A stretch of DNA of 47,159 nucleotides from a virus (taxonomy: Duplodnaviria; Caudoviricetes): the IMG/VR virus record IMGVR_UViG_3300008097_000010, positions 1 to 47,159 of that record; one strand, 5' to 3'. The first letter of the stretch is position 1. Each line of letters begins with the position of its first letter. Shown in pieces: positions 28,701-46,520 of the stretch. The position numbers and the translations under genes were made by a program. Under the pieces are notes generated by a model. The model was not told where the DNA came from, ran no database searches, and saw only the letters and a program-made list of their open reading frames with translations.

Positions 28701-31618
28701 TCAGAACCAGATTCAATAACTTTAATTGATTTTAATACATTCTTAGAATTTGTTCTAAACTTATGAATACCACTAGCAGTAGTTGCAGTAGAAATACCAA
28801 TAGTATTAATACCACTCATAGCATCACTATAATTTTTATATAATGTTATTGTTTTTGAATTAACAACTCTAACATTATATGGTGCTCCATTAGATAAAGT
28901 TCCAGTAGGTGTATTAGTAACATCATATGCAGGACCAACACCTATTTCAGCATTACCATTACTATTATAATAAATTGCCTCACCATTAGTTAAATAATGA
29001 TCTTTTTTAAATGTTATAGTTTCATTTTCTTTTGATATTCCACCTGCAAAAAATACATCTCTACTATCAAAATCTAATTCTCTAAATCTCTGTCCAACAA
29101 TAGGTTCTAATCTACATCCAGATCCATTACCACCAGTTAATGATAATGAAACAACTCTATCAATATCAAAATCATGTGGATCAACAAAAACTTCCTTAAC
29201 AGATCCACTAACTATTGGTTCAATATATGCTGTAGAACCACTACCAACAGGAGATTCAATTGTTAATCTTGGTGGATTAATAATATCATATTCATCACCA
29301 CTATTAAATGTATCAACAGATGTTAATGGACCATAATAAACATAATTATTGGAAATTGGTGATCTTATTTGAACACCATCAATTAATACACCAACATTAT
29401 TAAGAGGTATATTATTTTCACCACTATTAACTGGTTCATGATCTAATCTAAATCTTCTTAAAATTTGATTAGGTGCAAGTTTTTTACCAAATCCTGTTGT
29501 TTTATCATAATGGTCTGATAAAATAAATTCATGAGGACCTGTAGCAACTGAATCTGTACCTAATCCTATAGATTGTGTTTTATTTCCAACTTGTCCCCTT
29601 GATCGGTATAATCTAATTTCAGCATCAGTTTCTGTTGATGAAAGAACTTCAACATAATAATTTTCACCAGAGGTCAATCCATCTAAATCTGTTCCATGAG
29701 ATCTATAAATTATAGAGTCTCCAGTTAAGAATTTAATAGGATTATCAATCTTAATTGTATGATATGTACCGTCAACTTCGTGCTTCTCTACAATTATTTC
29801 ATACGAACCATTAGGAATTGTTGAAGAATTTATATTAATATTGTTTAAAGTATAACTTGGTAAAGAGTTTGATGCAACATAACCTTCTTTGTCACCATCA
29901 ACATATACGTTTAAAACATCAGAAATAATATTATTATTTCCATGAATTAATTCAATATCATTACTTGATGCCTTTCTTATATTTCTTCTAATATCATATT
30001 CTGTTGTTAATGGTGAGGAAGAACTTGGCAACCCACTACCAGCTAAAGTGATAGAATTTTCATCAACAATACTATCAACAACTGCATTTGCTACTACAGT
30101 GTTGCTATTTCTTTTTAAAACATCTACATTATCATTTAATTTTAAACTTGATTTATCAATAGAACTTCCTAAAGTAAAGGTACTTCCATTAATTGAATTA
30201 ATTTGATATCTTGATTTTGTATTATAAATCCAAGAGTTTGCAAATATTTCCTTATATGTTGCATCAGTATCAATAAATGTATATGGATACTTTGATATAC
30301 TTTTTATAGATTCTCCAACATTTTTAACATATATTCTTTCATCTTCTTGTATTAGTGAAACATCAGATACAATTTTAAAATCTGATAAAACACCAGTAAT
30401 TCTTAACTCAACTTTTTCTTCTATATTACCATCAGCATATCCATAAATTACTTCATCAGATCTCAAATCAGATGATATTCCTACAATATTATTAACTCCA
30501 CTACAACCAAAGAATTGATTTATACTTTTTGATGTGTATGTAATTATATTTTTACTACCATTAGTCCCCTCATTTATTAATATACCAGACTTGGCAAACC
30601 CAACAGTAGAATCAACCGAAATAATAGAAGATCCAACAGGAACTTGATCTAAAGATTTTGTTTTACCTGGAATTGTAAATGTTCCTTCTATTAAATCTCT
30701 ATCATCAAATCCAACAAATAATGAAAGTTTATAATAAGGTTTATTATCTCTTGTAAGAATTTCAACCTCAGAAACTGAAGCATATGTTAAAGGATCTGTT
30801 GATTTGTATATCGTTTGCCCAACTAATTTGGATGGATCAAGATCAAGAGTTAATAAATCTGCAATAATTACTTCTCTACGAATAAATTCTGATGATGATG
30901 GTTTAATTAAACGATCTTCTAAATCTACTATTGTAGCATCAACACCATATAGAAGTTTAAATAAAATTCTAATTGATTCCTGAATACCTTTTGATTGATA
31001 GAAAGATCTTGCATGTTTTATAAAATTACCAACATCAATACTTTCATGAAAATCATTATCTTCTAATCCAGGTAAGAATGTCTTCTTTAACTTTCTATAA
31101 AATTCCTGTAGAAATAATACACTTAAATTAGTAACAACACCATCGGAAATATGAGTATCTGCTTTTGTACTCTCAAATATTAATGTATCTTTATTAATAT
31201 TATTGAAAAAAGATGAAATTCCTACATTATATCCAGTTACTCCACTAAAACCACGAATACAACCAGTAAAAGTAGTATCTGTTTTTCCAGTATATGTTAT
31301 TATTTCATCATCAATTTTTAATAATCCATATGTATCTGGATATCCTTTTGTAGATAAAACATTAATAGTTGTATCTGATAAAGAAACTGAAGAAGTTAAA
31401 GTCGTTTTTCCAAATATAACTTCAGGAACTAAATTATCAACTTTAAGATATTGATCAAAATTAGAGATTAAATCAATACTACCACCTTGAAATTCCTGAG
31501 ACAGATAATACTGTTTAAAAAAGTCTGTTGCAATAGGAAAATCATCAACCAAAAAACTTGGAAGTTGATTTTCTATTATCTCATTTAATTTTATTCTTCT
31601 ATCAATACCTACAACCAT
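16727..31618 (-). CDS. gp7: Giant baseplate wedge initiator-like protein (4963 aa)
   Basis: Lies between gp6 and gp8. QLPSFL..DFP...F..YY and FYQSKG...S..ILFKLLYG N-terminus, DYYQNLSYSVKS...LVHPSG, a YHYH-type segment, and many HG..GD and GxGY repeats. Confidence 0.88.
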   Translation of the reverse strand: MVVGIDRRIKLNEIIENQLPSFLVDDFPIATDFFKQYYLSQEFQGGSIDLISNFDQYLKVDNLVPEVIFGKTTLTSSVSLSDTTINVLSTKGYPDTYGLLKIDDEIITYTGKTDTTFTGCIRGFSGVTGYNVGISSFFNNINKDTLIFESTKADTHISDGVVTNLSVLFLQEFYRKLKKTFLPGLEDNDFHESIDVGNFIKHARSFYQSKGIQESIRILFKLLYGVDATIVDLEDRLIKPSSSEFIRREVIIADLLTLDLDPSKLVGQTIYKSTDPLTYASVSEVEILTRDNKPYYKLSLFVGFDDRDLIEGTFTIPGKTKSLDQVPVGSSIISVDSTVGFAKSGILINEGTNGSKNIITYTSKSINQFFGCSGVNNIVGISSDLRSDEVIYGYADGNIEEKVELRITGVLSDFKIVSDVSLIQEDERIYVKNVGESIKSISKYPYTFIDTDATYKEIFANSWIYNTKSRYQINSINGSTFTLGSSIDKSSLKLNDNVDVLKRNSNTVVANAVVDSIVDENSITLAGSGLPSSSSPLTTEYDIRRNIRKASSNDIELIHGNNNIISDVLNVYVDGDKEGYVASNSLPSYTLNNININSSTIPNGSYEIIVEKHEVDGTYHTIKIDNPIKFLTGDSIIYRSHGTDLDGLTSGENYYVEVLSSTETDAEIRLYRSRGQVGNKTQSIGLGTDSVATGPHEFILSDHYDKTTGFGKKLAPNQILRRFRLDHEPVNSGENNIPLNNVGVLIDGVQIRSPISNNYVYYGPLTSVDTFNSGDEYDIINPPRLTIESPVGSGSTAYIEPIVSGSVKEVFVDPHDFDIDRVVSLSLTGGNGSGCRLEPIVGQRFRELDFDSRDVFFAGGISKENETITFKKDHYLTNGEAIYYNSNGNAEIGVGPAYDVTNTPTGTLSNGAPYNVRVVNSKTITLYKNYSDAMSGINTIGISTATTASGIHKFRTNSKNVLKSIKVIESGSDYQYRKLNVNPSGISTTFDSINFTNHGFNNGDIVEYSPTVGIGSTYPKAIDGLTANNSYYIMKLDSNSFRIADGKDNYDRGDYVGLGSTGTGYQTFKYPDIKVHIDVAYASTITGSYENILTPVVTGSIIDTYLYDNGVGYGSSILNLEKNPIVTIENGKGAELKPSVVDGKIVDVQVLNKGSEYYSSPKIVIETTGITTTGVFGNGAVIRPVISDGKLIDVVIVNSGIGYTSGSVNVYSESRGLNALFESRVRRLTVDTKKKESEYSLNSEGSDSVYLSLIGYNQNISDAFDDDGTKHSPIIGWAYDGNPIYGPYGYANPDNTSSVGIVTSGYLLDSSKVFNRPSFKYPNNVDIFPEGFFIEDYQYEDIGDLDSHNGRFCKTPEFPNGTYAYFAGISTNASTGAIDSSYPYFVGNTYRSEFISTDTTLTHDFDFNNTDIVRNTFPYKVGDEFANNDYIVESNETVRQLTKVESVTSGVVDFLQVLDGGDGYKVGDYTVFDNEKTNGMGVRGEVHSIAGIGVSSIDTQLETSENAVFLWDSENTVIADYTPFIELNDQDTVSISGLSSSIVHLTDSFKVGISTNVIGLAKTMSVNSLVNGVVEDIYVNIIPNTVSIGSSLKINDIETVKVLNIYDMGSILRVKRYGVGAAHTYSSKIDVLNRSVTIPVKTKEFKSKVNDLIYFNGHQSVGLGTTVGGGISVDYTIGEVTKTVPIPTRTIYLPNHPFKTGQKLTLRKKGTATSFIVGDTQHPTNLFNIPNVTTDIETVYAINKGQNYIGLATQVGIANTAGDGLFFHGNGSNDFEYVLESNHNQVTGNISKIISTVEVKIGAANTSDHGLSNGDIISLDVVPNSVVGLGSTAPLTLSYNEEFQKLLINRVRFNDTDVDTINNTITIENHGYKTGEKVFYDSDQPVGGLSRQCYYISKVDSSKVRFAQTLKDVQVDPSLTIDLTSTGGSDHSVALVNPPINVPKNSKLTFSTIDSSLENYELKVFYDKEFKNEFNSSQDSNLFNVSVGATTVQLSYSESAPLKLYYGLTRNGFISTCDVGVPDYSQINFVDSLYSGDYKVFGITSDTYKISPRSIPESLHYNDDQCEKLEYSTESKNVTGAIKEIKLLSSGYNYKSLPKFKSIVSDDGKNANIVALSTSIGRIKDVRILDIGYEYSSDKTLSPEAYVPPIIRIDNLDSLKSVNIINGGSEYLSSPDLIVYDPQNNKVVDETSLIAHTPHQSVSEIEVIAPVQGLNSVNHRVIAVNNSNGVGINSMTGGGSGIVTCILSTPINGFTTPPFAIGDEIFVEGIELFGESGIGTQTSSSVGVATGGDGYNSSDYQYRFFKVDDFVNSNPAVLKYNLIGLSTNPGIAKTFQSGYANIINRSNYPVLESIQERGSFETNERLFVLGANGKFTQRDVSIVDSRDDFVKVDGTFELKVGDRISGTNSNVSATVVSIIENKAKFGVDYSNRQDYGWVDDIGKISEDFQVIENNDYYQNLSYSVKSDITWDQFVDPVNRLVHPSGLKNFADVGITSSVQTDIIGTQSSDPLVILDVVGERRVDTINNIDFVTDYDSRETKSKFIQFENLKLTDYTKCKTNRVLLHDDISPRFSSKGIQDLFTEVEEITSKFSKYLIQITDPDTFDTQVSEIAVLTTTNDAFLVDKASDFTNMRLGDFTAEADSFGRKTLQFVPTDKYDKDHDIKVLKTYFNTDSIIEGTKQIGSIDLVGKNVGIGTTTVGFTTTTIAEFDATDFNSLHASLFVQNDVTKKINYSEVIVDFDGTQTHISEIYTDSLDVSYSATKVGVITARYDSGKVYLDCENDKIQKLSVNASIVGFGATSAGESGIGTHRFTTPGQPEGAERTARIETTYNSRHSGSSPITITTINNLIDSSIKGIIRVSSEDISAVHQVTVIQDVNGDAITVQYPFTAIDSMSGIGTFGTVTTGNDIVFNFYPDVEWNSSVVEVQSHLEIVNTENDFKNEPLPLQYGSVERSVFLSAYDGVNGSRANKINFDLEHENVPIYSKTFNPADTTQLDKVTGIFTIPNHFFNTNEELEYEPASTFVGVGATGVSIGQTTTNAGLTTDILPTTVFVNVIDENKFKLYSRLEYISSGVGITFTGVGEGNAHKIGMKKKLSKTVIGLDGIVQQPITFTSIKHNLENNIGAGTSQFVLSGISSVQPRDVLKIDNEYMKVEQVGFASVGLGTINDSKDVALGICTLPVVRVARGSLGISAADHNADSEVRVHRGSFNIVDSTVWFLDPPKGNTRERRSITNLPYVRAEFSGRTFLRSNYDTNMVFDDISDVFTGIGRTYTMTVGGANTTTGVGIGNGILFINGVFQTPLTINNSGNNYEFNNDTVAGISSVIFTGISSENGQKIQSVFDINQNQLPRGGLIVSMGSTPGLGYAPLVGGNVKVDLKDNSNLFTAGSLNGIVGVGTSSGKNLGIQTAAYNYRTGIITVTTNDVHGFSGDLPTTVKLKGLEFTCPTKTVGQPVTGTSYDPSTGDLTIKIVNHGLQDGDAIKFKKESLSFKCQYGVNSAHTWSGGTATNAVTINGSVQKDVTSAAYDPATGLCVMNIGTHTFTTSDTVTIGAGKLSFTCTADGGTSVKTYPRSTDPAYNTAIAIVAVDQSSGSITANVGAVSGNVAKTYPRETDPAYDKYLYINTVTPDTFKVNVLLSTTPTNTDTHTFLLASPDAVQTLNYVGVTTSIFQDHERPLFVVGIVSERSFEVNAGITTIHHEFQESPSAYAYEYYADLTTGSGYRSPVAIGVTDIEYDHKFIESTNNSINIDGAGNLTPTDAIYESFSGNLILTVGNHNLTAATAHKADTASYNPTTGKLTVTMAGHTFNNNDWVKVKDHSIVFTCGMDNDTSTHSYPRESDPISGKWIQVSNKQTNTFDLDVGTSPEVTFTPTDANYDPVTGLMELTIGSHTLRPGTHVRLLEESIKFTCDVDNNTSEKAYPRATDPYHNTAIKIESVTTNTITLKVLTNIPSSNTTKHTFKSALNASVKTGGNYTHLFASSADGGILKATSVVTVVDNSLTFTCSRDNHLGKHTYPRTTDPASNAKLGLESVTNNTITINVGSGGGGGTGGIVEATIAPNKHKFVSALPGVAYTGLIEKNADNVDYDPATGWMQVTSPSHGFVGCSTITPTTVAYNKNNGVLTITKNGHGFVVGDSILIEDNSLTFTCSKDNHTTKHHYPRPTDYASGRWLTITNKTINTFKVNVNPNPSDNKFDHQYTHIVDGCIYKANQIIGIATESITLTCAHDQHQTLHTYPRTTDPVHNVGVPVGKSSTDWFRVNVGKSPAGTGGALDFTIKNAGGRYVNPQLQVEDPVYENLPVVGVSRLGIGLTADTGENLLVNLSVGAAATTVGTARSMFEISDFKIARPGHSFKIGDKFKPIGLVHDKRLQKPLQEFELEVVETFSDFFSAWQFGELDFIDSVGSLQNGVRKRFPLFFNGQLLSFEIDETAKLSSQIDLNAVLLIFVNGVLQTPNISYQFQGGTTFVFTEAPMDSDKVDIFFYKGQDGVDIEIVNVTETLKVGDSVRIRKHPKYLDENVDPYTETQETGRIIKEILGSDLIETTIYNGPGINEVTPKPLEWTKQKVDRWIKGDLISKSRETIEPQVYPTARIIGDVKVDTGTTAGVDDGIFVDDAESFFYEEGPLHLSLDDRYGINIISVDALMMPSKDAVSAGFTAIVNNSGQIGSLDITNVGSGYTDGNNYQLSFSGIHTSVGSGVTASATATILNGSVTGTTITNPGSGYTHSAPPQVLIKSVEYTTEQLTEIQNVQGFAGIITGISTTTGTNGHPLALKFYFYADKNATDLKVGYPVLIKDTEFNLSGIVTTGAHLPFNDGSYQQTNNRWTAAKGGAAVTSVDNNDNEIVSIGSTYLDNIYKVASVYVEDQRAEITCNILSTTDTIVGFAVSGYYDGYTSSANSGLTTSFGRISWGRIYNGKRSSNPISIGVTGLTVDAGLTTFPTIQRRNYGGLNSLQGLRNTGAIRVQI
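18830..21400 (-). repeat. Eight protein-level repeat units (Y(D/N)PxTG...H...FTC...YPRxTDP) inside gp7
   Basis: The translation shows eight N-terminal motifs, eight FTC-type motifs and seven YPRx(T/S)D motifs. Confidence 0.85.
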
Positions 31619-37862: not shown

Positions 37863-37995
37863 TTAGTCGTTTTTAAACGGGGGCGAACGGGGACGGGGGG
37901 ACGGACGGGCAACTGGCATATCACGAACCCACTGTGCCACCTCACCAACTGGCATACGTCTACTTTTATGAGACGTATGCCTAACGAACGACTAA
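37863..37995. other. GC-rich structured non-coding element
   Basis: Closing inverted repeat TTAGTCGTT/AACGACTAA, four G-runs at 37879-37909, a palindrome copy at 37933-37956 and an 11-bp hairpin at 37951-37981. Confidence 0.6.
37933..37956. repeat. 24-bp palindrome, copy A (no adjacent -10 box)
   Basis: TGTGCCACCT-CACC-AACTGGCATA, with an extra half-site at 37911-37920. Confidence 0.75.
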
Positions 37996-38585
37996 TAGTT
38001 GTCGGCATATATTCTGCCACTATCTAACAGGGTGTAGTCGTCCTCATAGATATCCGCTACTTGTTCCCAGAAGTTAGAGCGATCAAGGCAGTTTTGAAAC
38101 CATGACGGCATAGTTTTAAACACTTCATAATAAGCGTCACGAGTCATCTCTTCGGCAAATTCTTCCATTGTCTGACCAATACCTGCAAGGCGTTCGGTCA
38201 TCTCTGTGACTGCCTCGACTCCATAATGACAGGCAAATTCTCTGGTTTCTTCTTCTCCTTCTTCTTCTGCTATGATGTCATAGTCTTCCTTATCTGCTAA
38301 TTCAATAAAACTAAAGTCTGACCAATCATCACACCATTCTACAACGTCCTCCCGTGTGTAGAGTCCTTCTGTAAGGTCGTCCGATGCCTTAGCGATTGCT
38401 TGATGAATTTTTCTACGTCTCCAATCGTATACGCTCTCAGGATCTTTCATGAAATCATCAGGAGCGAAATTTAAAAGAAACAACTGATGACCGATTTGCT
38501 CACGCTTTCCTGGAAACTTCTTATCGAAATAGTATGATTCTTTGACTTGATCATACAATTTTTGTGCTGTTGCTTGGTGGTTCAT
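37992..38585 (-). CDS. Acidic hypothetical early protein (197 aa)
   Basis: Long ORF with a palindrome-linked promoter and a TTCCCCAAATG start context. Confidence 0.85.
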   Translation of the reverse strand: MNHQATAQKLYDQVKESYYFDKKFPGKREQIGHQLFLLNFAPDDFMKDPESVYDWRRRKIHQAIAKASDDLTEGLYTREDVVEWCDDWSDFSFIELADKEDYDIIAEEEGEEETREFACHYGVEAVTEMTERLAGIGQTMEEFAEEMTRDAYYEVFKTMPSWFQNCLDRSNFWEQVADIYEDDYTLLDSGRIYADNY

Positions 38586-38610
38586 TTGGGGAATTGTTTG
38601 AACTGATTTA

Positions 38611-38669
38611 ATAATAAAGGATAATAGGAGGAAATCTATTTACCTTGTGCCAGTTTATCAAGTGGCACA
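38611..38669 (-). promoter_or_regulatory. Palindrome-linked early promoter (copy B)
   Basis: Palindrome at 38646-38669, 29 nt, then TATTAT at 38611-38616. Confidence 0.8.
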
Positions 38670-38672
38670 CAT

Positions 38673-38706
38673 AAAAAAATGATGAGTAAATTAATACTCA
38701 TCATTT
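38673..38706 (-). terminator. Rho-independent terminator
   Basis: AAATGATGAGTA/TACTCATCATTT stem followed by a T-run on the minus strand, at the stop of the ORF ending 38691. Confidence 0.75.
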
Positions 38707-38861
38707 AAAATCCGTTGCAAGTCGTCCGACTGTCCGACTCCCCAACCGTGAGAAGGACGGTTGCAACGCTGTTGTTCTCTTTGCTCATCAAGTGCAATCA
38801 TACGTTTAGCGAATGATTCCATATTAGGGGAACAAAGATACCCTTGACCTTTAATTAACAT
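38691..38861 (-). CDS. Small hypothetical protein (56 aa)
   Basis: Manual translation MLIKGQGYLCSPNMESFAKRMIALDEQREQQRCNRPSHGWGVGQSDDLQRILNDEY; its stop lies inside the terminator. Confidence 0.6.
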   Translation of the reverse strand: MLIKGQGYLCSPNMESFAKRMIALDEQREQQRCNRPSHGWGVGQSDDLQRILNDEY

Positions 38862-38866
38862 TTGAG

Positions 38867-38899
38867 AAAAAAGGGAAGTGTGTGAGGTTTCCTTCCCTT
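38867..38899 (-). terminator. Terminator-like hairpin
   Basis: AAGGGAAG-loop-CTTCCCTT-TTTT on the minus strand after ORF 38908; the loop is large. Confidence 0.5.
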
Positions 38900-38907
38900 A
38901 CTTTCTA

Positions 38908-39132
38908 TTATGCCTCAATCTGGGTCAATGTCTCATCTTTGAAACATTTGTTAATAAAGCGACCAACTGACTCAGTTTCTCTTAACTGTGCTGTAAAGTT
39001 GTCAAGGTTAGAAGTCTTATATGTGTAAGACCGTGTGCTGTCGTCTTTAGCATTGCGAAATGCGACTGTAACCTCATTGGATAGGTCAGACCAGTTAACC
39101 GATGAAACTGCTGTTGACTTAGGAAAATCCAT
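38908..39132 (-). CDS. KTSC-domain-like protein (74 aa)
   Basis: STAVSSVNW......V.VAF.....YTY.....F...L....SVGRFINK matches the KTSC pattern. Confidence 0.75.
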   Translation of the reverse strand: MDFPKSTAVSSVNWSDLSNEVTVAFRNAKDDSTRSYTYKTSNLDNFTAQLRETESVGRFINKCFKDETLTQIEA

Positions 39133-39158
39133 TTAAAGTTGTTTGTTTAACTGAATCT

Positions 39159-39253
39159 ATTATAAGGGTATTTTTATGGGTATTGCGTTCACAATGTGCC
39201 AGTTCATAAAGTGGCACAAGATCGGTAGATTTCGGTGTTGGTAGGATTATAAT
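39159..39253. promoter_or_regulatory. Bidirectional palindrome-linked promoter (copy C)
   Basis: Palindrome at 39195-39218; minus-strand TATAAT at 39159-39164 (30 nt away) and plus-strand TATAAT at 39248-39253 (29 nt away). Confidence 0.8.
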
Positions 39254-39259
39254 AAGAAT

Positions 39260-39325
39260 AACAAAACAAAGAGGTGAGGGGTATCACCGAAGACAAAAAT
39301 CTTCGACACTCCCCCTGCCCTTTTA
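39260..39325 (+). ncRNA. Candidate small structured RNA, copy 1
   Basis: No ORF; downstream of a plus-strand -10; hairpins GGTGA/TCACC and GAAGA/TCTTC; homologous to 40932-40995. Confidence 0.55.
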
Positions 39326-39342
39326 TAAAAAAAGGGTATAAG

Positions 39343-39371
39343 AAAAAAACGTCTACCGAAAGGTAGACGTT
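39343..39371 (-). terminator. Rho-independent terminator, possibly bidirectional
   Basis: AACGTCTACC-GAAA-GGTAGACGTT with a minus-strand T-run, after ORF 39380. Confidence 0.88.
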
Positions 39372-39379
39372 ATTCAGGT

Positions 39380-39667
39380 TTATCTAAAAAACCTGTTGTA
39401 AAGAGATTGGATTCTCTCACGCTTTGTAAGTCTGTTAGAAATGTAAAGAAACCCTTTGTTGCCTCCCTGTGGAACTGCGGTTACTTTACCAGTTTTAACA
39501 AGTGCTTCAAGGATCAACGCTCTATGTCCCTGCTTGCCATACTTGATATAATCATAAGATGGATGTGTCTCCCTTATGATCTCTGTGAGAGTCAAACCCT
39601 TAGAAGGTGTATGTACCCTTCTTTCAATCGCTTTGTGGATTTGGTTCGCTGTAGGAAAGTTTTTCAT
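39380..39667 (-). CDS. Basic hypothetical protein (95 aa), possible winged-helix
   Basis: Likely start MKNFPTAN at 39667 (TTCCCCAAATG context). GLTLTEII...ILEALVKTGKV resembles a wHTH (inference). Confidence 0.75.
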   Translation of the reverse strand: MKNFPTANQIHKAIERRVHTPSKGLTLTEIIRETHPSYDYIKYGKQGHRALILEALVKTGKVTAVPQGGNKGFLYISNRLTKRERIQSLYNRFFR

Positions 39668-39831
39668 TTGGGGAATTAGTTGTTTAACTATTAATATGAT
39701 GCCATGAATTAATAGACCTGTCAAGCAATTCATTCAAATATATTCATTTCAACATTGTATAAAATGTACATAGACATATTTTTAATTATGCTTTAGACTG
39801 AAGGTAGACCCTAAAATAATTGAGGTTGTAT

Positions 39832-39860
39832 AAAAAAACGCCTACCTTAGAGGTAGACGT
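39832..39860 (-). terminator. Rho-independent terminator, near-duplicate of 39343-39371
   Basis: AAAAAAACGCCTACCT-TAG-AGGTAGACGT on the plus strand. Confidence 0.75.
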
Positions 39861-39920
39861 AATTTTTGTCATGCCTCCAACGTGTAGGTGTTGGAGGTGG
39901 TGTTGTCTCTTTTGGAGTAG

Positions 39921-40073
39921 TCATGCTGGAACATTAGCGAAGAACTTTTGCTGTAATGAGTCGTATGCCTCCTGATCCATGTGGTCAGGGATTCCAACGT
40001 CATCAAAGAAATTAAACATATCTAACAATGCTTGATCCTCATCACAGGTAAAAGAATAGTTGTAACGATCCAT
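39921..40073 (-). CDS. Small acidic hypothetical protein (50 aa)
   Basis: Manual translation MDRYNYSFTCDEDQALLDMFNFFDDVGIPDHMDQEAYDSLQQKFFANVPA. Confidence 0.75.
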   Translation of the reverse strand: MDRYNYSFTCDEDQALLDMFNFFDDVGIPDHMDQEAYDSLQQKFFANVPA

Positions 40074-40074
40074 T

Positions 40075-40200
40075 TTAGCACCTGTTAATCATTTTTTGAG
40101 TTTCAGGGTCTATTTGCTCATAGTAACCCGACTCCATATTGTCGGGTTCTTTGTAGTCTCCTGAGTAGTCAAAATCTGGTGTGTAGTCTTCTGGGTTCAT
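40075..40200 (-). CDS. Small acidic hypothetical protein (41 aa)
   Basis: Manual translation MNPEDYTPDFDYSGDYKEPDNMESGYYEQIDPETQKMINRC; TTCCCCAAAAATG context; its stop abuts the next ATG. Confidence 0.7.
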   Translation of the reverse strand: MNPEDYTPDFDYSGDYKEPDNMESGYYEQIDPETQKMINRC

Positions 40201-40226
40201 TTTGGGGAACTGGTAAAGGTTTATAA

Positions 40227-40348
40227 AAGGGGCAACTCAGTTTGGCAGTCTGAGATTAAATCCTATCGGATCGCCTTGCCCCTTATGTGTTGTTGAGAGG
40301 GTTTACGCTCTGACCATTCAGGCACTCGCCATGTTATCCCTCTCAACA
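40227..40348 (-). ncRNA. Candidate two-domain structured RNA or 5' leader
   Basis: Begins at the predicted TSS of the TATAAT at 40354-40359; two 58-nt domains closed by 11-bp and 9-bp stems. Confidence 0.6.
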
Positions 40349-40353
40349 TTTTT

Positions 40354-40389
40354 ATTATAAAGGATAATAGATCGTTTTCTATTATCCTT
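40354..40389 (-). promoter_or_regulatory. -10 box TATAAT abutting an 11-bp stem-loop
   Basis: AAGGATAATAG-N8-CTATTATCCTT at 40360-40389 immediately upstream of TATAAT. Confidence 0.65.
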
Positions 40390-40398
40390 AACATTCTT

Positions 40399-40809
40399 TT
40401 AATATCCTAAAGCGATGCCAGAATAAAAAGGTATTCTATTCTTTGCATCTTCAGTAAGTTGAACGAACCACTTCCAATTATGTTGGTAAACTTTTTGTCC
40501 TGAGTTACCAAAGCAGTCAAGTAATGCGTTCAACTTCCTTTTTGTTGTGGTAGTATAGAAACCGTCAAAATTATCTAATTCTACTCCTCTTGTATTAATG
40601 CCTTTGGTGTTGTAGTCTCCGCTAATCGTTTGCCTACCGTCAAAGAGTGTTATATGAGTAGGAAACTTTACCGCAATTAAGTTATTATGATAATAAACTT
40701 TTGCGTTCTGACCTTCCATAACAACTGATGTTGTACCCTCTGACCAATCATAACCGCCAAAAACAGCGTCAATCATGTTCTGGTCAATTTGTCTATGTTG
40801 TGAATACAT
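40399..40809 (-). CDS. Conserved phage early hypothetical protein (136 aa)
   Basis: Likely start MYSQHRQID at 40809 (TTCCCCATG); VYYHNNLIA, T.TTKRKLNALL, VYQHNWKWFV. Confidence 0.85.
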   Translation of the reverse strand: MYSQHRQIDQNMIDAVFGGYDWSEGTTSVVMEGQNAKVYYHNNLIAVKFPTHITLFDGRQTISGDYNTKGINTRGVELDNFDGFYTTTTKRKLNALLDCFGNSGQKVYQHNWKWFVQLTEDAKNRIPFYSGIALGY

Positions 40810-40830
40810 GGGGAAAATTGCTGATGTCCC

Positions 40831-40925
40831 ATTATTGCCTATTTTTCCAGACATGACCATAAGCAATGTGACAGTTAAAAAAGTGGCACAAGGAGCGTTG
40901 TTTTAGGTTTCAAATGGTTTATAAT
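40831..40925. promoter_or_regulatory. Bidirectional palindrome-linked promoter (copy D)
   Basis: Palindrome at 40867-40890; minus AATAAT at 40831-40836 (30 nt) and plus TATAAT at 40920-40925 (29 nt). Confidence 0.78.
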
Positions 40926-40931
40926 ATGTGT

Positions 40932-40995
40932 AACAAGCAAAGACGGGAGCAGGGTCGCTCTACTGAACAAATCTTCGCCACCGCCCCTGCCATAA
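40932..40995 (+). ncRNA. Candidate small structured RNA, copy 2
   Basis: Shares AACAA.CAAAGA, an AGGG loop and AAATCTTCG.CAC..CCCCTGCC with copy 1; the first stem is GAGC/GCTC instead of GGTGA/TCACC. Confidence 0.55.
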
Positions 40996-41026
40996 AATAA
41001 TATTAGTAATATTCTGTAACAATTAT

Positions 41027-41122
41027 ATTATACCACAAAAATCTCATTTGTCAAGTCGCCTTGTGCCAGTTCATAAAGTGTCACAAGGTCTATTGACTTT
41101 AAGCATAAGGGTGTGCTATAAT
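41027..41122. promoter_or_regulatory. Bidirectional palindrome-linked promoter (copy E)
   Basis: Palindrome at 41062-41085; minus TTGACA-N16-TATAAT (41054-41027) and plus TTGACT-N18-TATAAT (41093-41122), both with an extended TG. Confidence 0.8.
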
Positions 41123-41140
41123 ATAAAAAAGAGCGACATG

Positions 41141-41223
41141 GTGGACAGTTTGTCAACTGTCACTATGCCACTTTATATACTGGCACACATGTGCTTGCAT
41201 TATACATGCGTGTGTGTTATAAT
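41141..41223 (+). promoter_or_regulatory. Tandem palindromes (copies F and G) with a plus-strand promoter
   Basis: 41141-41164 and 41164-41187, then TTGCAT-N17-TATAAT at 41195-41223 (-10 is 30 nt from copy G). Confidence 0.75.
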
Positions 41224-41224
41224 A

Positions 41225-41365
41225 TTATGCGTAATGCTTATATGCGAGTGATTCGTATGTAACATCATTGCGTCCATACTCGTCTTCATCATATAATGAA
41301 TCTCGATATGATGATGAATGATTCTCGATTAAATCTCGATCAAAATATGTGTCTTCATGTTCCAT
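41225..41365 (-). CDS. Small acidic Tyr-rich peptide (46 aa)
   Basis: Manual translation MEHEDTYFDRDLIENHSSSYRDSLYDEDEYGRNDVTYESLAYKHYA; two consensus promoters upstream; CCAATG context. Confidence 0.7.
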   Translation of the reverse strand: MEHEDTYFDRDLIENHSSSYRDSLYDEDEYGRNDVTYESLAYKHYA

Positions 41366-41398
41366 TGGATCTCGAACAGATTTGCTGATGTTATAATG

Positions 41399-41427
41399 AT
41401 TATAGCAGATCTCGAACAGTTTGTCAA
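41399..41427 (-). promoter_or_regulatory. Perfect sigma70 consensus promoter
   Basis: TTGACA-AACTGTTCGAGATCTGC-TATAAT (17-nt spacer, extended TG). Confidence 0.9.
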
Positions 41428-41473
41428 CACGAAGATCTCGAAGAGATTAGTACGAACGAACTATCATATTTAT

Positions 41474-41502
41474 ATTATAGCAGATCTCGAAGAGATTGTC
41501 AA
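41474..41502 (-). promoter_or_regulatory. Perfect sigma70 consensus promoter (tandem copy)
   Basis: TTGACA-ATCTCTTCGAGATCTGC-TATAAT. Confidence 0.9.
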
Positions 41503-41568
41503 CCCATAAAACACGAAGATCTCGAAGAGATTTTATGTCTGGGTTTCACGAAAAAATCGCCCCGTGGG

Positions 41569-41597
41569 TTGACAGATCGCTCGCTCCATGCTACGCT
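41569..41597 (+). promoter_or_regulatory. Plus-strand sigma70-type promoter
   Basis: TTGACA-N17-TACGCT with an extended TG; no clear gene downstream. Confidence 0.6.
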
Positions 41598-41803
41598 CGC
41601 TAAACTTGCATAAGATCTCACCATTTATCAACCTTTTATGAGTCTTTCCACCCCATTATGTCTACTATTAATAGACGTATTTGCCCCTTCAAGATACACA
41701 GAGATACTCAAGGATACTATCCTTATACAAAACAGTTTTATATTTATAAAGGTATTTAAAACCTTTTTTTAATTAAATAGTGTATCAATTAATACAGAAT
41801 ACA

Positions 41804-42226
41804 CTAAGACCAAGGTAATTTGTCTCCCATCCTAATAACCTTTGTATCACTCACATTATACTCACTCTTATCAGGTGCTAAACTATCCTCAAGTCTACTA
41901 ACTTCCGTACTTCCCAACCCTGCTTTTACCCATCCTATCACAGTATTTTCAGTCAAATCAGCATACGCAATTTCAGGTGTTGTAATAGCAAACTTTATAA
42001 CATTTGTATATGCTTTACTATTCTTAATATGTGTATAGGTAGTCGTACCAATACCAGCAACAGGTGTCATAGAACTATTGCCTACTCCTATCTTACTTGC
42101 ATCAAAATATTGCCCCTCAACTTCTTCTGTTTCGTTTACCCTTACAAGATATTTGACTTCATCAACAAATCCATTTGCTGTAAGAACTCCCAAATTTTGT
42201 ACTGACCAACTTGTACTAATCGTCAT
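41804..42226 (-). CDS. Small tail/fibre-associated-type protein (140 aa)
   Basis: W.VQNL N-terminus, YADLTENTVIGWVKAGLG..EV..LE, C-terminal LPW; contains GIGTT. Confidence 0.8.
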   Translation of the reverse strand: MTISTSWSVQNLGVLTANGFVDEVKYLVRVNETEEVEGQYFDASKIGVGNSSMTPVAGIGTTTYTHIKNSKAYTNVIKFAITTPEIAYADLTENTVIGWVKAGLGSTEVSRLEDSLAPDKSEYNVSDTKVIRMGDKLPWS

Positions 42227-42350
42227 TACTTCCTCAACATCCTTGATTACTATTATTTACTCATAGTATGTCTCTACACACTATATTACCCATCACAATA
42301 TTTTGTATATCAATAAGATTAATGCTATGATATACAGAGTTACTCTCAGT

Positions 42351-42737
42351 TTATTGAACATCAAGATACCGATTACTCTGAGACTTATACATTTTTACGC
42401 CTACATTATCGTTGTTATAATCGGGCGTTGCCTCGCTCGTACCCTCGATAATGTCTCTCCTATTCTTGACGTATTCAAGTTCTCCCCAGTTCTCTCTATT
42501 ACACAATAATAATATATGAATATTCTTGTGCCTCATTGGTTTTCCAGAGGTGTAAACACAACTACTTTTGGGTCTTACTCCTGTCTCTATAGTAATATAC
42601 TGACTAAGAGGATTCCACCCATCTTTAACACGTTTTTCATTGTCTACTGGGTCACCTTTAAAATATACCCACCCTTCATGGACTTGTCCCAATTTATTAG
42701 TCCATCTAACATAATCATCTACTTGTGGTTCATACAT
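42351..42737 (-). CDS. Conserved cyanophage hypothetical protein (128 aa)
   Basis: YEPQVDDYVRW...EGWVYFK...YITIETGVRPK; start overlaps the upstream ORF. Confidence 0.85.
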   Translation of the reverse strand: MYEPQVDDYVRWTNKLGQVHEGWVYFKGDPVDNEKRVKDGWNPLSQYITIETGVRPKSSCVYTSGKPMRHKNIHILLLCNRENWGELEYVKNRRDIIEGTSEATPDYNNDNVGVKMYKSQSNRYLDVQ

Positions 42738-42900
42738 TTCTATCTGGGATTGCTCTTAGATCGTTAGGGTTTACACCATCACTAATTACATTTTCCAGTA
42801 CAATTTTTGCTTGATCTTTTGTTAGTTTGACTGCCTTTTCATCAACCAAATCCCATCCTGTAGTTCCTAATTGTTCTACTCTGTAAAGTTTTTCTGACAT
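42730..42900 (-). CDS. Small hypothetical protein (56 aa)
   Basis: Manual translation MSEKLYRVEQLGTTGWDLVDEKAVKLTKDQAKIVLENVISDGVNPNDLRAIPDRNV; fills the gap in the operon. Confidence 0.8.
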   Translation of the reverse strand: MSEKLYRVEQLGTTGWDLVDEKAVKLTKDQAKIVLENVISDGVNPNDLRAIPDRNV

Positions 42901-42908
42901 AATCTTAA

Positions 42909-43139
42909 TTAAGTTGTAAATGCGTCTATAATAGCAGATTCATAATCATCCGCTAATGGTAATTTTTGTGCCTTAACCACATTGGGCATTATGTTATTCA
43001 CATAGGTTTGGTCAAATCCATCTTCAGCAGAACATAAATCAAATGCCTCAGTATCATCTTTAGCAATTAATGTAACTACACCCCCATATTCTGATTGAGG
43101 AAATGGAACCCAATAATCAATGATGTAAATATACTTCAT
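42909..43139 (-). CDS. Hypothetical protein (76 aa)
   Basis: YIIDYWVPFPQSEYGG; operon packing. Confidence 0.85.
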   Translation of the reverse strand: MKYIYIIDYWVPFPQSEYGGVVTLIAKDDTEAFDLCSAEDGFDQTYVNNIMPNVVKAQKLPLADDYESAIIDAFTT

Positions 43140-43143
43140 TTAT

Positions 43144-43341
43144 CTATGTTGGTTTCTTTCTTGTCATTCTACCATCTTTTCTATCAAATTGCAACTTATC
43201 TAACTGCCTATCAAGTATCATATTAATATCTCTCAAGGATGCCGTAATCAATGCACCATCAGCATTATCTTTTAACAAATCGTCTACATGAGATAGATGT
43301 TCTTGTGCAAACATCAACTTAGTTTGTTCATTCATTCTCAT
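43144..43341 (-). CDS. Hypothetical protein (65 aa)
   Basis: ATGA overlap with the upstream ORF. Confidence 0.75.
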   Translation of the reverse strand: MRMNEQTKLMFAQEHLSHVDDLLKDNADGALITASLRDINMILDRQLDKLQFDRKDGRMTRKKPT

Positions 43342-43523
43342 ACTAAAAATTCACTCAAATAATAATCATAATTGACATTCATTTCTTTTGCCCTACGCTT
43401 ATAATATGTCTCATTACATTTTCGGGTTGTTTCCCTACGCATATAAGCAAGTTCTTCTACTGACGCATGATCCATAAAGGATTTAAACGTCTTAATAAAT
43501 TCTTCTATCTCAGCATCACTCAT
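43338..43523 (-). CDS. Hypothetical protein (61 aa)
   Basis: ATGA overlaps; C-terminal V.YDYYLSEF. Confidence 0.8.
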   Translation of the reverse strand: MSDAEIEEFIKTFKSFMDHASVEELAYMRRETTRKCNETYYKRRAKEMNVNYDYYLSEFLV

Positions 43524-43765
43524 GCCGTTAATCCTAAACTACTACCATCAGCAAAACATTCTTCAGCAGTTAAATCAGGATTAAACCTTTTCATTGATCT
43601 AAGTGCTTCAACTGTTAATGTTTCTGCTCTTATAGCAGCATCGTGGTCATTTACATGAAAAAACTCATCTTCCATTATTTCATCTAAATGATCTTGCAAC
43701 AAATTAAATACTAAATTATACTCAGGTTCAGTAAACGTGACTGATTTTAATACAGAATCGGACAT
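43520..43765 (-). CDS. Hypothetical acidic protein (81 aa)
   Basis: First gene after the promoter at 43792-43820; FTEPEY motif. Confidence 0.8.
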   Translation of the reverse strand: MSDSVLKSVTFTEPEYNLVFNLLQDHLDEIMEDEFFHVNDHDAAIRAETLTVEALRSMKRFNPDLTAEECFADGSSLGLTA

Positions 43766-43791
43766 TGGACTTGAAGGTGGTGGTAATACTA

Positions 43792-43820
43792 ATTATAACA
43801 CTTTTATACAAATGTTTCAA
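43792..43820 (-). promoter_or_regulatory. Sigma70-type promoter
   Basis: TTGAAA-N17-TATAAT with an extended TG. Confidence 0.8.
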
Positions 43821-43830
43821 CCCCTTAACA

Positions 43831-44046
43831 TTACTGCATTAATTTACCTATACCTATTACAATTAAAAATGATAACATAACAACAACATCCCATCCTTTT
43901 GTTCTTATGAAATATGGAATACTTAAAAAGTTACTAACCAAATACATTGCAGCACCCACAGTTGTAGATACATGTAATACAATGAAATAGGATATAACAA
44001 TCAATACTGATCCGATTACCCTACTTAATGAATCAAGTTTAATCAT
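43831..44046 (-). CDS. Small membrane protein (71 aa, about 3 TM segments)
   Basis: Three hydrophobic stretches. Confidence 0.8.
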   Translation of the reverse strand: MIKLDSLSRVIGSVLIVISYFIVLHVSTTVGAAMYLVSNFLSIPYFIRTKGWDVVVMLSFLIVIGIGKLMQ

Positions 44047-44666
44047 TAACCAATATACTTCTTAGTTAACTCTTCAGTTAACCAATACTTTTCGTAATCA
44101 CTATTCTCTTCCAAATATAAGTGACCTCCCATCCAATCTGCTTTTGATAAACATTCTTTTCTACTATCTGCATCTAATAAGTTATATTTTGCATACTTAG
44201 TATATGGTGCTTTAGAAGAATATGATAATGATTTGTAAACATCTCCAGTTTTAATATCAACAAAGCAGTTCACATCCGCTAACCTATATTCATTCTCACC
44301 TCTACAATATGATGAACCTTTTTTATATTCAGTTATCCTGAAATACTTTCTACCTTTAGTAACAACAAACTTAGTATGAGGTTCCCATGTACCATTCTCT
44401 ATCTCATCTAAGTGCTTCTTTGCACCTATACCAAATGATCTTTCCGCACCAAAGGTTGATAAATTTTTATTATAATGTTTTATATTATATTCTTTATGAT
44501 CTTCCTCTAATCTATCTGCTAATTGATTAACATAACCTTCAAGTTTTGTTGTTTGAATAACTCTCACTTGGCGGTTGATTTCCCATAGTTTTAAGTCGTA
44601 AATACCATCCTTTAATGATAAATCACCTGTAATTTGAGTTTTTGTACCTTCATTTAATGTAATCAT
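44046..44666 (-). CDS. Conserved phage early hypothetical protein (206 aa)
   Basis: KGRKYFRI...FVDIKTGDVYKS...KYNLLD...ADWMGGHLY. Confidence 0.85.
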   Translation of the reverse strand: MITLNEGTKTQITGDLSLKDGIYDLKLWEINRQVRVIQTTKLEGYVNQLADRLEEDHKEYNIKHYNKNLSTFGAERSFGIGAKKHLDEIENGTWEPHTKFVVTKGRKYFRITEYKKGSSYCRGENEYRLADVNCFVDIKTGDVYKSLSYSSKAPYTKYAKYNLLDADSRKECLSKADWMGGHLYLEENSDYEKYWLTEELTKKYIG

Positions 44667-44668
44667 AA

Positions 44669-44860
44669 TTAATCGTGGAAATTGGGAATAAAGGTTTCAA
44701 GCACTTCATAATGAGCATCAACCGCACCTTCAAGTTCTTCAAAAATGCGTTCAATTTCATCAGTAGTGCCTTGTCTATGTGCTACTACCTGAAGGTGATG
44801 TAGTATTGTGCTAATTTCACCTTCAGTTAATGCACAGATTAGTTTAGTTTCATTGTCCAT
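44669..44860 (-). CDS. Hypothetical protein (63 aa)
   Basis: Operon packing; LTEGE motif. Confidence 0.8.
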   Translation of the reverse strand: MDNETKLICALTEGEISTILHHLQVVAHRQGTTDEIERIFEELEGAVDAHYEVLETFIPNFHD

Positions 44861-44862
44861 TT

Positions 44863-45117
44863 TTACATGTAAGAAGTAAGTGGATGTAAAGTGTTAGTGG
44901 TATAATTAATATCCTTTATTAACCACCCCATTGTATCAGATATTTTTTTAGTTAAATGCTCACCATCAATAGCATACCATAAACCAATAGCATCCTGAGT
45001 AAGATCTTCTCTCTCACCTTTAGAGATATGTTCTTCATCAAAATCAAAGTCAATGTAAGTAACCAAATACATTGTCTCTTTAATTGCTTTTGAATACTTT
45101 AGTGAAGGGTTGGACAT
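44863..45117 (-). CDS. Hypothetical protein (84 aa)
   Basis: Likely start MSNPSLKY at 45117 (TTCCCAATG), downstream of a promoter; GLWYA......ISDTMGWLIK. Confidence 0.8.
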   Translation of the reverse strand: MSNPSLKYSKAIKETMYLVTYIDFDFDEEHISKGEREDLTQDAIGLWYAIDGEHLTKKISDTMGWLIKDINYTTNTLHPLTSYM

Positions 45118-45142
45118 TGGGAACCTTTTGGGTGATGTACCT

Positions 45143-45201
45143 ATTATAATGGAAGTAAGGGGTGTTGCCACCCCCTATGTGCCAGTTTATCAACTGTTTG
45201 T
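45143..45201 (-). promoter_or_regulatory. Palindrome-linked promoter (copy H) with an internal stem-loop
   Basis: Degenerate palindrome at 45178-45201, GGGGTG/CACCCC hairpin, TATAAT at 45143-45148 (29 nt). Confidence 0.78.
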
Positions 45202-45438
45202 TTTGGCATAAGAGATTGAAGGGAACATTTCAAACATAATGTCTCTTACTCTCTCACGATCTAAACTGTCACCATAACCCCAAGTCAATACAGTTGGATA
45301 CTTTTCTATCTGTTTCCAGTATTCGTGAATTGCATCCTTGATTTTAGTCTTAGTGCATCCATATACAGGATAGATACCATCTACTACGTTGTAGAATGAA
45401 TAAACATAATCAATAAACTCTTGAAGTGAACTGCACAT
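45190..45438 (-). CDS. Hypothetical protein (82 aa)
   Basis: FIDYVYSFY...GIYP...WGYGDSLDRERVRDIM; has its own promoter. Confidence 0.85.
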   Translation of the reverse strand: MCSSLQEFIDYVYSFYNVVDGIYPVYGCTKTKIKDAIHEYWKQIEKYPTVLTWGYGDSLDRERVRDIMFEMFPSISYAKTNS

Positions 45439-45465
45439 TGGGGAAACTCCGTTGGTGATGTACCT

Positions 45466-45524
45466 ATTATAATGGTCAAAGGGACTGATAACAGTCCCAA
45501 TGTGCCAGTTTAATAAGTGGCATA
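45466..45524 (-). promoter_or_regulatory. Palindrome-linked promoter (copy I) with an internal stem-loop
   Basis: Palindrome at 45501-45524, GGGACTG/CAGTCCC hairpin at 45481-45498, TATAAT at 45466-45471 (29 nt). Confidence 0.82.
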
Positions 45525-45689
45525 CAGTAAACTCATTAACTCAAGATTTTCTGCTTCACTATATGCTCTATCATAAGGTATAAAGTCCTGAAAGTCTTCA
45601 GTTCCTTCAGTCCTGTATGATAGTTGACCATCTTCAACATAGTAATCAATTACTAATTGGTCAATGGATGATACAAATTGTTTAATCAT
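45510..45689 (-). CDS. Small acidic hypothetical protein (59 aa)
   Basis: Manual translation MIKQFVSSIDQLVIDYYVEDGQLSYRTEGTEDFQDFIPYDRAYSEAENLELMSLLYATY; TAATG overlap. Confidence 0.8.
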   Translation of the reverse strand: MIKQFVSSIDQLVIDYYVEDGQLSYRTEGTEDFQDFIPYDRAYSEAENLELMSLLYATY

Positions 45690-45916
45690 TAGACTACATC
45701 CAAATTTAGTGAATTGTTGTGCATGTTCTTATTAATTACACATGCTTGATGAATGTTAAAGAGTTTTTCATAATTAACTCCCTCCCAATCTGACCACTCA
45801 GAAACATAATCCCAATGCTCAAGATCGGCAGTTCCATCTATATTTGTGGGGCATGATTTGAAATCATCTTCATCATCAACCCAAAAGTGCCGTCCAAAGT
45901 GAAGTGACATTAGCAT
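45689..45916 (-). CDS. Hypothetical protein (75 aa)
   Basis: FGRHFWVD...SCPTNIDGTAD...DYV; has its own promoter. Confidence 0.82.
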   Translation of the reverse strand: MLMSLHFGRHFWVDDEDDFKSCPTNIDGTADLEHWDYVSEWSDWEGVNYEKLFNIHQACVINKNMHNNSLNLDVV

Positions 45917-45945
45917 TTGAGTTACCCCCAGTTGTTGATGTACTC

Positions 45946-46004
45946 ATTATAGAAAGAAAGATCAACATTTAACTCTCCAGTATGCCAGTTTCTTAACTGG
46001 CACT
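45946..46004 (-). promoter_or_regulatory. Palindrome-linked promoter (copy J)
   Basis: Palindrome at 45981-46004, TATAAT at 45946-45951 (29 nt). Confidence 0.8.
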
Positions 46005-46047
46005 CTTTAAAGTCAATGTAACTTAGTATGTCAAATGTTATAATCAT

Positions 46048-46248
46048 TTAACTATACCAGTTAGAGTTGTAGTTGATCTCCTCATCTGTAGGAGAATAGT
46101 CTACAATGTCATGTAGGATCTCAAGCACTTCATCAAGTTGACTCATGTGAGTACCCATGATGTTTTGATCCATTTCATGCTTTGCCTCTTCAGCAAGGAA
46201 CTTCTCTTTAAGTTCTGAGAAGATTTTTTCAATGTCAGTATATGTCAT
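46048..46248 (-). CDS. Hypothetical acidic protein (66 aa)
   Basis: Operon packing. Confidence 0.78.
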   Translation of the reverse strand: MTYTDIEKIFSELKEKFLAEEAKHEMDQNIMGTHMSQLDEVLEILHDIVDYSPTDEEINYNSNWYS

Positions 46249-46250
46249 TG

Positions 46251-46439
46251 TTAGGGGAAAATTAAATTGTGAACTTGATCTATCACAGTATCATTGATCT
46301 CAATGTCCTGTGACTCTAAGTAATCAATACACATCTCAAAGTCAATAACAGGCATATCTTCATCAGATGTAACAACATAAGTGAGAAATGAATTAAGATC
46401 CATCAACTCGTCTTCTGTAAGTCCTGTAGTTGTGTTCAT
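46251..46439 (-). CDS. Hypothetical acidic protein (62 aa)
   Basis: Follows promoter copy K; LTEDE motif. Confidence 0.78.
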   Translation of the reverse strand: MNTTTGLTEDELMDLNSFLTYVVTSDEDMPVIDFEMCIDYLESQDIEINDTVIDQVHNLIFP

Positions 46440-46461
46440 GGTGTGAATTGCTTACATTGTT

Positions 46462-46520
46462 ATTATAGAGAGTCTAAGTCTCTTTTTACATGTTGATGTG
46501 ACACTTCTGGAACTGGCACA
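46462..46520 (-). promoter_or_regulatory. Palindrome-linked promoter (copy K) embedded in coding sequence
   Basis: TGTGACACTT-CTGG-AACTGGCACA at 46497-46520, TATAAT at 46462-46467 (29 nt). Confidence 0.78.

Follow-up and report, generated by a model that had tools for sequence, protein, structure and literature searches.

Two of the early promoters in a 47-kb fragment of a T4-like cyanophage (IMG/VR virus record IMGVR_UViG_3300008097_000010; 47,159 nt, hereafter called the window) also face away from the genes, and this raises the question of what use the phage would have for a short RNA fired in that direction. Each of these promoter faces leads into an element that is predicted to form a small, strongly conserved hairpin followed by an unpaired, conserved two-part motif. 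By sequence comparison, the two elements belong to a widespread family of T4-like cyanophages, both marine and freshwater, whose members tend to lie on one particular side of a repeat array. Our tentative preference, held with less than even confidence, is that the unit is a cis-acting early transcript that would open or prime a replication origin at the neighboring array, in the manner of T4 oriE and oriF. A free small RNA (sRNA) acting in trans is a close rival.

A sequence-only reading of the window had proposed the two elements as homologous small RNAs, and both are indeed located where it placed them (Table 1). A TATAAT −10 box lies exactly 29 nt from each of the two palindromes, and the predicted starts, 39260 and 40932, are the seventh base after the box. 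As that reading stated, the stem has been swapped and still pairs; the pairing covers 5 bp in either copy (GGTGA/TCACC versus GGAGC/GCTCT). No open reading frame (ORF) of at least 45 aa overlaps either copy, and a perfectly matching promoter (41054–41027, 12/12 with extended TG) converges on copy 2. A GTG-started frame of 30 codons runs from 39274, in copy 1 only. The pattern AAATCTTCGNCACNNCCCCTGCC has two matches in the window at up to three mismatches and none in 100 shuffles, and a model built from homologs scores the two copies at 70.6 and 65.1 bits, with nothing else above 13 bits. The copies are 1672 nt apart and point in the same direction, and the repeat array begins 309 nt after copy 2.

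Members of the family were collected by pattern scans of viral and metagenome contigs, which return true members mixed with chance matches. In two such scans, hairpin and motif occurred together at 63 of 124 loci and at 28 of 119 loci, respectively; when the 3′ motif was used by itself, with no hairpin required, 95 of 100 distinct viral matches proved to have a hexaloop hairpin of this type upstream. Deduplication gave 155 cores (two of them probably chance matches), and 164 after the addition of a second motif flavor that carries GCAGC in place of CCUGC. A contig holds from one to three copies, and the two flavors have been found together on one contig. In a model search of 12 named complete phage records, P-SSM2 and S-SSM7 have one copy each, S-SRM01 has two, and MED4-213 has one divergent copy, with none convincing in S-PM2, P-RSM4, Syn9, ACG-2014f, P-TIM40, S-SSM4, metaG-MbCM1, or Mic1. 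Further carriers identified by BLAST are P-SSM5, S-SSM6a, and P-HM1. Weak model matches in Syn9, ACG-2014f, S-SSM7, and record G001 (E 0.04–0.9) were rejected on inspection because the architecture is missing, and the match in Mic1 is likewise weak (E 0.04). Most members are oriented against the adjoining genes, but the divergent GCAGC-type unit of MED4-213 (75866–75921) is codirectional with them.

An exact-pattern scan of GTDB returned nine stretches, none of them cyanobacterial by label. Six are real members on contigs of 1 to 15 kb (L400–L402 and L404–L406, in bins labeled Bacteroidota or Nanopelagicaceae), which are probably misbinned cyanophage DNA. The genes adjoining the units are highly variable, with 35 families among 54 left neighbors and 37 among 53 right neighbors, and no conserved partner gene of the toxin–antitoxin kind was found among them.

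The promoter that faces the RNA is the better conserved of the two faces of the palindrome, because a −10 box (TA...T) lies 28 to 31 nt from the palindrome in 99 of 104 units with a clear palindrome (15 of 416 shifted control windows), whereas the opposite face has such a box in only 53 of 103. This promoter points away from the genes, and the hairpin begins 13 to 14 nt after the predicted start. The stem is 5 bp long and shows two-sided changes at all five pairs, in an alignment that was preselected for at least four pairs. When G-U and A-C were scored alike, 772 of 775 cells pair, and these include 104 G-U and no A-C combinations; the plus strand is therefore the strand that folds. Although the stem sequence is free, the loop and the 3′ motif are conserved. 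The loop consensus is NRNGUM, seen mostly as GGGGUA, AGGGUA, AGGGUC, or GAGGUA and also as GAUGUA, GAAGUA, or UGGGUC. The motif reads UCG-H-CAC-N4 and then CCUGC or GCAGC, with a U located 8 nt further on, and both flavors share the same hairpins. Conservation of the motif is partly imposed by the search patterns, but the identity of H (never G in 155 cores), the diversity of N4 (36 forms in 140 cores), and the flavor switch are not, the last being a joint change of motif positions 12 and 14 to their complements (C..U versus G..A). The 35 nt that lie 3′ of the motif are rich in A and T (77% versus a locus mean of 56%; n = 85). An intrinsic terminator follows on the plus strand in 19 of 158 cases, and a U-tract on the minus strand (at least six in eight) is present in 6 of 164.

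The A-rich leader AACAA.CAAAGA, which the sequence-only reading took as part of the element, is found in 6 of 164 cores and is not a family feature; A-rich starts also follow the window's gene-facing promoters, and ACAA occurs near the start of 99 of 164 cores. That the 3′ motif might pair with the spacer of its own promoter was considered for the CCUGC class and rejected, as cognate and noncognate combinations are about equally stable (−9.32 versus −9.37 kcal/mol, n = 176). In one GCAGC subclade (L676, L666, L771, and related loci), however, the motif region is complementary over 9 to 12 bp to the spacer, at a site some 23 nt upstream of the −10 box.

A pseudoknot between the AGGG(G) loop segment and a 3′ CCCCT had also been put forward. 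The complementarity is present in the window copies, but none of its four pairs shows two-sided change, and loop–tail covariation is absent among the top mutual-information pairs of the alignment. Of 140 CCUGC cores, 88 could adopt the RGGG/CCCCU register, but none of the 23 GCAGC cores could, since these have G-rich loops and no CCC. Given this lack of covariation, together with the inability of any GCAGC core to form it, we do not regard the pseudoknot as a feature of the family. An alternative 3-bp register, wherein loop nucleotides G3-G4-U5 would pair with A-C-Y, is compatible with 106 of 140 and 21 of 23 cores of the two flavors (127 of 163), and two of its three pairs are invariant.

The sequences that flank the stem conform to a kink-turn signature (GA-stem-NNN-GA, comprising the C-helix, a 3-nt bulge, a G.A pair at 1b.1n, and an A.G pair at 2b.2n) in 88 of 164 cores, including copy 1. 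Copy 2 is without this signature, as are 76 of the 164 in all. Among the 88, a G occupies position L1 in 83. A non-Watson–Crick 3b.3n combination with 3b = C or 3n = G is found in 58, which by the rule of PMC4382518 is the class that folds in Mg2+ alone. No duplex continues beyond the G.A pairs in these 88 cores, wherein positions 4 to 7 are mostly G.A, A.A, A.G, or A.C, and an A-U pair is found at positions 8 and 9 of the noncanonical arm in 39 and 41 of them, respectively. The arm therefore differs from that of a standard kink-turn (PMC4382518) by lacking a closing Watson–Crick helix, and folding of the family's version is predicted.

Unlike the adjoining genes, an array of ATCT(C/A)G(A/T) repeats is a recurrent neighbor of the unit. 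Linkage was counted on 87 units with long flanks; because units of related phages are among them, the counts are not independent. At a distance of up to 1.2 kb, an array follows the unit in 34 of 72 cases and precedes it in 7 of 72; at up to 2.4 kb, the corresponding figures are 44 of 63 and 11 of 67. The GCAGC-type units exhibit the same polarity, with an array downstream of 11 of the 27 and upstream of none. Distances from unit to array are bimodal, with 42 units at 14 to 426 nt and 18 units at 1.0 to 2.6 kb, and the more distant group often represents the upstream copy of a same-direction pair separated by 1.4 to 2.3 kb, as is the case in the window. In six of eight long stretches the unit stands directly before the array, amid several palindrome promoters that have no unit. 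The array pattern clusters once in the 252 kb of P-SSM2, at 66029–66170, adjoining the unit (66482–66550, minus strand of AY939844.2), and in seven of seven cyanomyophages without the unit there is no repeat cluster and only scattered background matches. DnaA-type boxes occur near 7 of 34 modules and 1 of 30 control stretches. This polar link to the array is a new observation that the sequence-only reading overlooked, and because of it a free decoy sRNA is no more likely than a cis role at an origin-like site.

Sequence comparison establishes the geometry of the promoter, the plus-strand hairpin with its motif, the AT-rich tract, and the direction in which the unit faces the array; from these features we infer the following course of events. 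Host RNA polymerase would fire early in infection from the reverse face of an early palindrome and make a short transcript, which would form its hairpin and then stall, or stay hybridized, at the AT-rich tract. The resulting RNA–DNA hybrid (R-loop) would open or prime an origin beside the repeat array, while the loop and motif would be recognized by a protein or by RNA polymerase itself. In favor of this course are the AT-richness of the tract, the scarcity of plus-strand terminators, and the position of the helix: its base is 10 to 12 nt from UC|G in 37 of the 76 units of the non-GA kind and 15 to 17 nt from it in 87 of 88 GA units, the latter being equivalent to 10 to 12 nt once the 5-nt kink core is subtracted. 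A distance of 10 to 12 nt is the spacing of a hairpin-stabilized pause. The upstream copy may serve as a second or backup unit with the same firing direction. A more specific version, wherein a structured priming RNA that is kinked and halts at a conserved signal beside an iteron array defines the early origin of a large marine and freshwater clade of T4-like cyanophages, is one that we consider somewhat unlikely.

The precedent for such an arrangement comes from T4. Minimal T4 origins of about 100 bp combine a promoter with an AT-rich unwinding element at which an R-loop persists; oriE has an early promoter and 12-nt iterons, and there are at least five origins per T4 genome (PMC3016281). Like oriF, oriG, and oriE, the cyanophage unit is short, begins with a promoter, continues into an AT-rich tract, and occurs several times per genome; in common with oriE it has an early promoter that is read without phage factors and a repeat array close by. 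At the level of sequence, a promoter precedes an AT-rich tract (99 of 104; 77% versus 56%) and an iteron-like cluster is nearby (44 of 63). The layout thus resembles a promoter-primed T4 origin by analogy, but the conserved hairpin, loop, and two-part motif have no counterpart there, and the cyanophage unit has neither a MotA-type promoter nor a switch in skew.

Several observations weigh against an origin transcript. The units of S-SSM7 and MED4-213 have no downstream array, and 19 of 63 units have none within 2.4 kb. No DnaA-type box is present near the window's array, and no conserved or recognizable initiator gene flanks the arrays. The GC skew is flat at 38.4 to 41.6 kb and negative on both sides, and so the window offers no switch of strand bias of the kind that is described in T4 at oriE, oriF, and oriG and not at oriA or oriC. 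The link between unit and array may reflect shared descent. Because 8 of the 12 named phage records are without the unit, it cannot be a universal origin. In T4 itself, the iterons have no established part in the activity of oriE, and R-loops require no particular sequence (PMC3016281); the T4 precedent therefore leaves the conserved loop and motif unexplained. The kink-turn signature is at least as compatible with a ligand RNA that folds. In S-SSM7, a different 8-mer is repeated fourfold about 0.9 kb downstream of the unit (L781:4875–5040), perhaps as a substitute for the array.

Four RNA runs, all marine, cover small shares of the region (0.05–0.17), and some of the pieces that overlie the element extend into promoter DNA. 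These are assembled contigs, which carry no information on strand, ends, or level, and they are therefore not evidence for or against transcription.

The close rival, which we regard as possible rather than probable, is a free early sRNA of about 50 to 70 nt that would act in trans by binding, or titrating as a decoy, a protein of the host or the phage. The protein would read the loop (G4-U5) together with the unpaired two-part motif, and the kink-turn would fold the RNA without L7Ae. Such an RNA gives a better account of the loop, the motif, and the kink-turn than does a cis-acting one. The excess of G-U over A-C combinations (104 to 0), the fixed loop and motif on a free stem, the hexaloop hairpin in 95 of 100 viral motif matches, the kink-turn signature (88 of 164, with 58 of 88 in the class predicted to fold in Mg2+ alone), and the presence of one to three copies per contig, with two flavors that can share a contig, are all as expected for it. 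It leaves the polar link to the array unexplained, however, and a terminator or protective 3′ hairpin is mostly missing, while the arm of the kink-turn has no Watson–Crick closure beyond two A-U pairs in fewer than half of the cases.

A different cis role, which we think unlikely, is that of a roadblock, wherein polymerase fired backward stalls at the motif and thereby insulates or tunes the adjacent early promoters in a host without Rho. The unit does have a terminator or promoter of the minus strand on one side and the next early promoter on the other, and the pause-like spacing between helix and UC|G also speaks for this role. The upstream edge of the hybrid region, however, is A-rich rather than G-rich as in the pause consensus. 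In addition, most palindrome promoters have no unit, and the array link is again left unexplained. In its favor, Rho is absent from cyanobacteria, where the majority of 3′ ends have no intrinsic terminator (10.1101/2025.11.10.687660).

We also hold it improbable that the pyrimidine-rich 3′ part pairs with host RNA, such that the two flavors would correspond to two targets. The C-rich 3′ segment is unpaired, motif positions 12 and 14 change jointly, each to its complement, and a C-rich single-stranded motif is likewise used by the host sRNAs Yfr1 and Yfr10 (PMC6778093). Unlike a seed, though, the conserved bases are interrupted by one free and four highly variable positions (36 N4 words in 140 cores), and a second match is present neither in the window nor in P-SSM2. 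Yfr1, Yfr10, and Yfr2 with the CGRE1/PlmA element share with the cyanophage unit a palindromic site upstream of a small RNA gene and a C-rich single strand (PMC6191309, PMC6778093). CGRE1, however, is 21 to 22 nt long, starts at −55 to −57, and has GTTG/GTTA flanks, whereas the cyanophage palindrome is 24 nt long and starts near −65. The cyanophage RNA further differs from these Yfr sRNAs in that its motif is interrupted and variable and it has no Rfam match.

The PeSL cassettes of T4-type phages (PMC2839356) likewise combine an early sigma70-type promoter and a stem-loop between variable ORFans in hyperplastic early regions, but the cyanophage unit differs in having its hairpin within the predicted transcript, a promoter that faces off the genes, a fixed loop, a 3′ motif, plus-strand polarity, and no U-tract. 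That the unit is merely a minus-strand terminator or a PeSL-type cassette marking recombination joints of swapped early genes is very improbable despite this precedent, the variable neighbors, and the terminator-like appearance of the copy 1 hairpin on the minus strand, since wobble pairs favor the plus strand by 104 to 0, a minus-strand U-tract occurs in 6 of 164, and the fixed-loop hairpin lies downstream of a promoter pointing off the genes, not at or upstream of a gene-facing start as PeSL stems do.

The supposition that the family lies outside Rfam is borne out by the search that it called for. Rfam 15 gave no match at or above the gathering threshold in the window, with only subthreshold chance matches in 38600–41800, and no match at E ≤ 0.5 across six homologous loci. 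The broader proposal of an undescribed phage sRNA family survives in part: the family is uncatalogued, widespread, and plus-stranded, with a compensatory hairpin and its own conserved promoter, but the pseudoknot and the leader do not belong to it. Likenesses to hammerhead, pistol, and hepatitis delta virus-like ribozymes, glutamine and preQ1 riboswitches, ops/JUMPstart, and 5S rRNA were considered and rejected because the fixed positions do not fit. The 24-bp palindrome and its −10 box are probably the early-gene regulatory element of T4-like cyanophages that Doron et al. 2016 reportedly describe, but the RNA model is unmatched in Syn9 and P-TIM40. No description of the RNA element was found in a literature search, which did not reach Doron et al. 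2016 and in which the 10,006 models of PMC10690425 were not compared.

Much of the killing of Prochlorococcus and Synechococcus is due to T4-like cyanophages, and the unit occurs in cultured, tractable members, namely P-SSM2, S-SRM01, S-SSM7, and P-HM1. If it is an origin transcript, then these phages would gain a testable replication start and a T4-type primer RNA with conserved structure. If it acts in trans, it would be a new small RNA of early infection, and its partner would point to a host target.

Table 1. Coordinates of the two RNA units and adjoining features in the window
Feature	Position	Strand	Remark
Early-promoter palindrome, 24 bp, copy 1	39195..39218		serves both directions
−10 box of divergent early gene 38908–39132	39159..39164	−	30 nt from palindrome
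TATAAT −10 box, copy 1	39248..39253	+	29 nt from palindrome
Predicted transcript core, copy 1	39260..39329	+	start inferred from −10 box
Hairpin GGTGA/TCACC, copy 1	39273..39288	+	5 bp, loop GGGGTA
Kink-turn signature, copy 1	39271..39293	+	hairpin between GA and GAA-GA; rule from PMC4382518
Unpaired conserved motif TCGHCAC-N4-CCTGC, copy 1	39303..39318	+	
Terminator-like hairpin	39348..39371	−	end of upstream early gene 39380–39733
Early-promoter palindrome, 24 bp, copy 2	40867..40890		
TATAAT −10 box, copy 2	40920..40925	+	29 nt from palindrome
Predicted transcript core, copy 2	40932..41001	+	start inferred
Hairpin GGAGC/GCTCT, copy 2	40946..40961	+	5 bp with outer pair G-T, loop AGGGTC
Unpaired conserved motif TCGHCAC-N4-CCTGC, copy 2	40975..40990	+	
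AT-rich tract 3′ of motif, copy 2	40991..41026		candidate unwinding element
Convergent sigma70-type promoter	41027..41054	−	12/12 match, extended TG; −10 box 29 nt from next palindrome
Three more palindromes, clustered	41062..41187		at 41062, 41141, and 41164
Seven ATCT(C/A)G(A/T) repeats	41300..41525		iteron-like array, the window's only such cluster

The ORF list and profile matches place baseplate, neck, and terminase genes on the left of the window and small early-type ORFs on its right, with nearly every ORF on the minus strand; two ORFs close to the elements match DUF7936 and Kyano_Gp96. The 24-bp palindrome is present in eleven copies (37933–46520), all in the early region, with −10 boxes 28 to 31 nt away on one or both faces. 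Microcystis phage Mic1 has 15 to 20 similar palindrome matches by BLAST, yet no convincing RNA unit. On the minus strand of the array are two perfect TTGACA-17-TATAAT promoters with extended TG (41399–41427 and 41474–41502) that fire toward copy 2.

Between the two copies, in gene-free DNA, nucleotides 40291–40301 pair with 40338–40348 to give an 11-bp stem around a 36-nt inner part, possibly a structured RNA, and bins at or adjoining this stem have the highest summed contig depth in RNA run X1. A 197-aa minus-strand ORF (37992–38585) has a weak match to a PHROG annotated as anti-restriction (E 4.5e-5) and no Pfam match. Very long minus-strand ORFs of 4963 aa (16727–31618) and 2519 aa (7542–15101) are found amid the baseplate genes. 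Finally, nine annotated tRNA features of S-PM2 (AJ630128.1; locus L387, 3809–5728; eight named and one pseudo) were not found by ARAGORN at the annotated coordinates.

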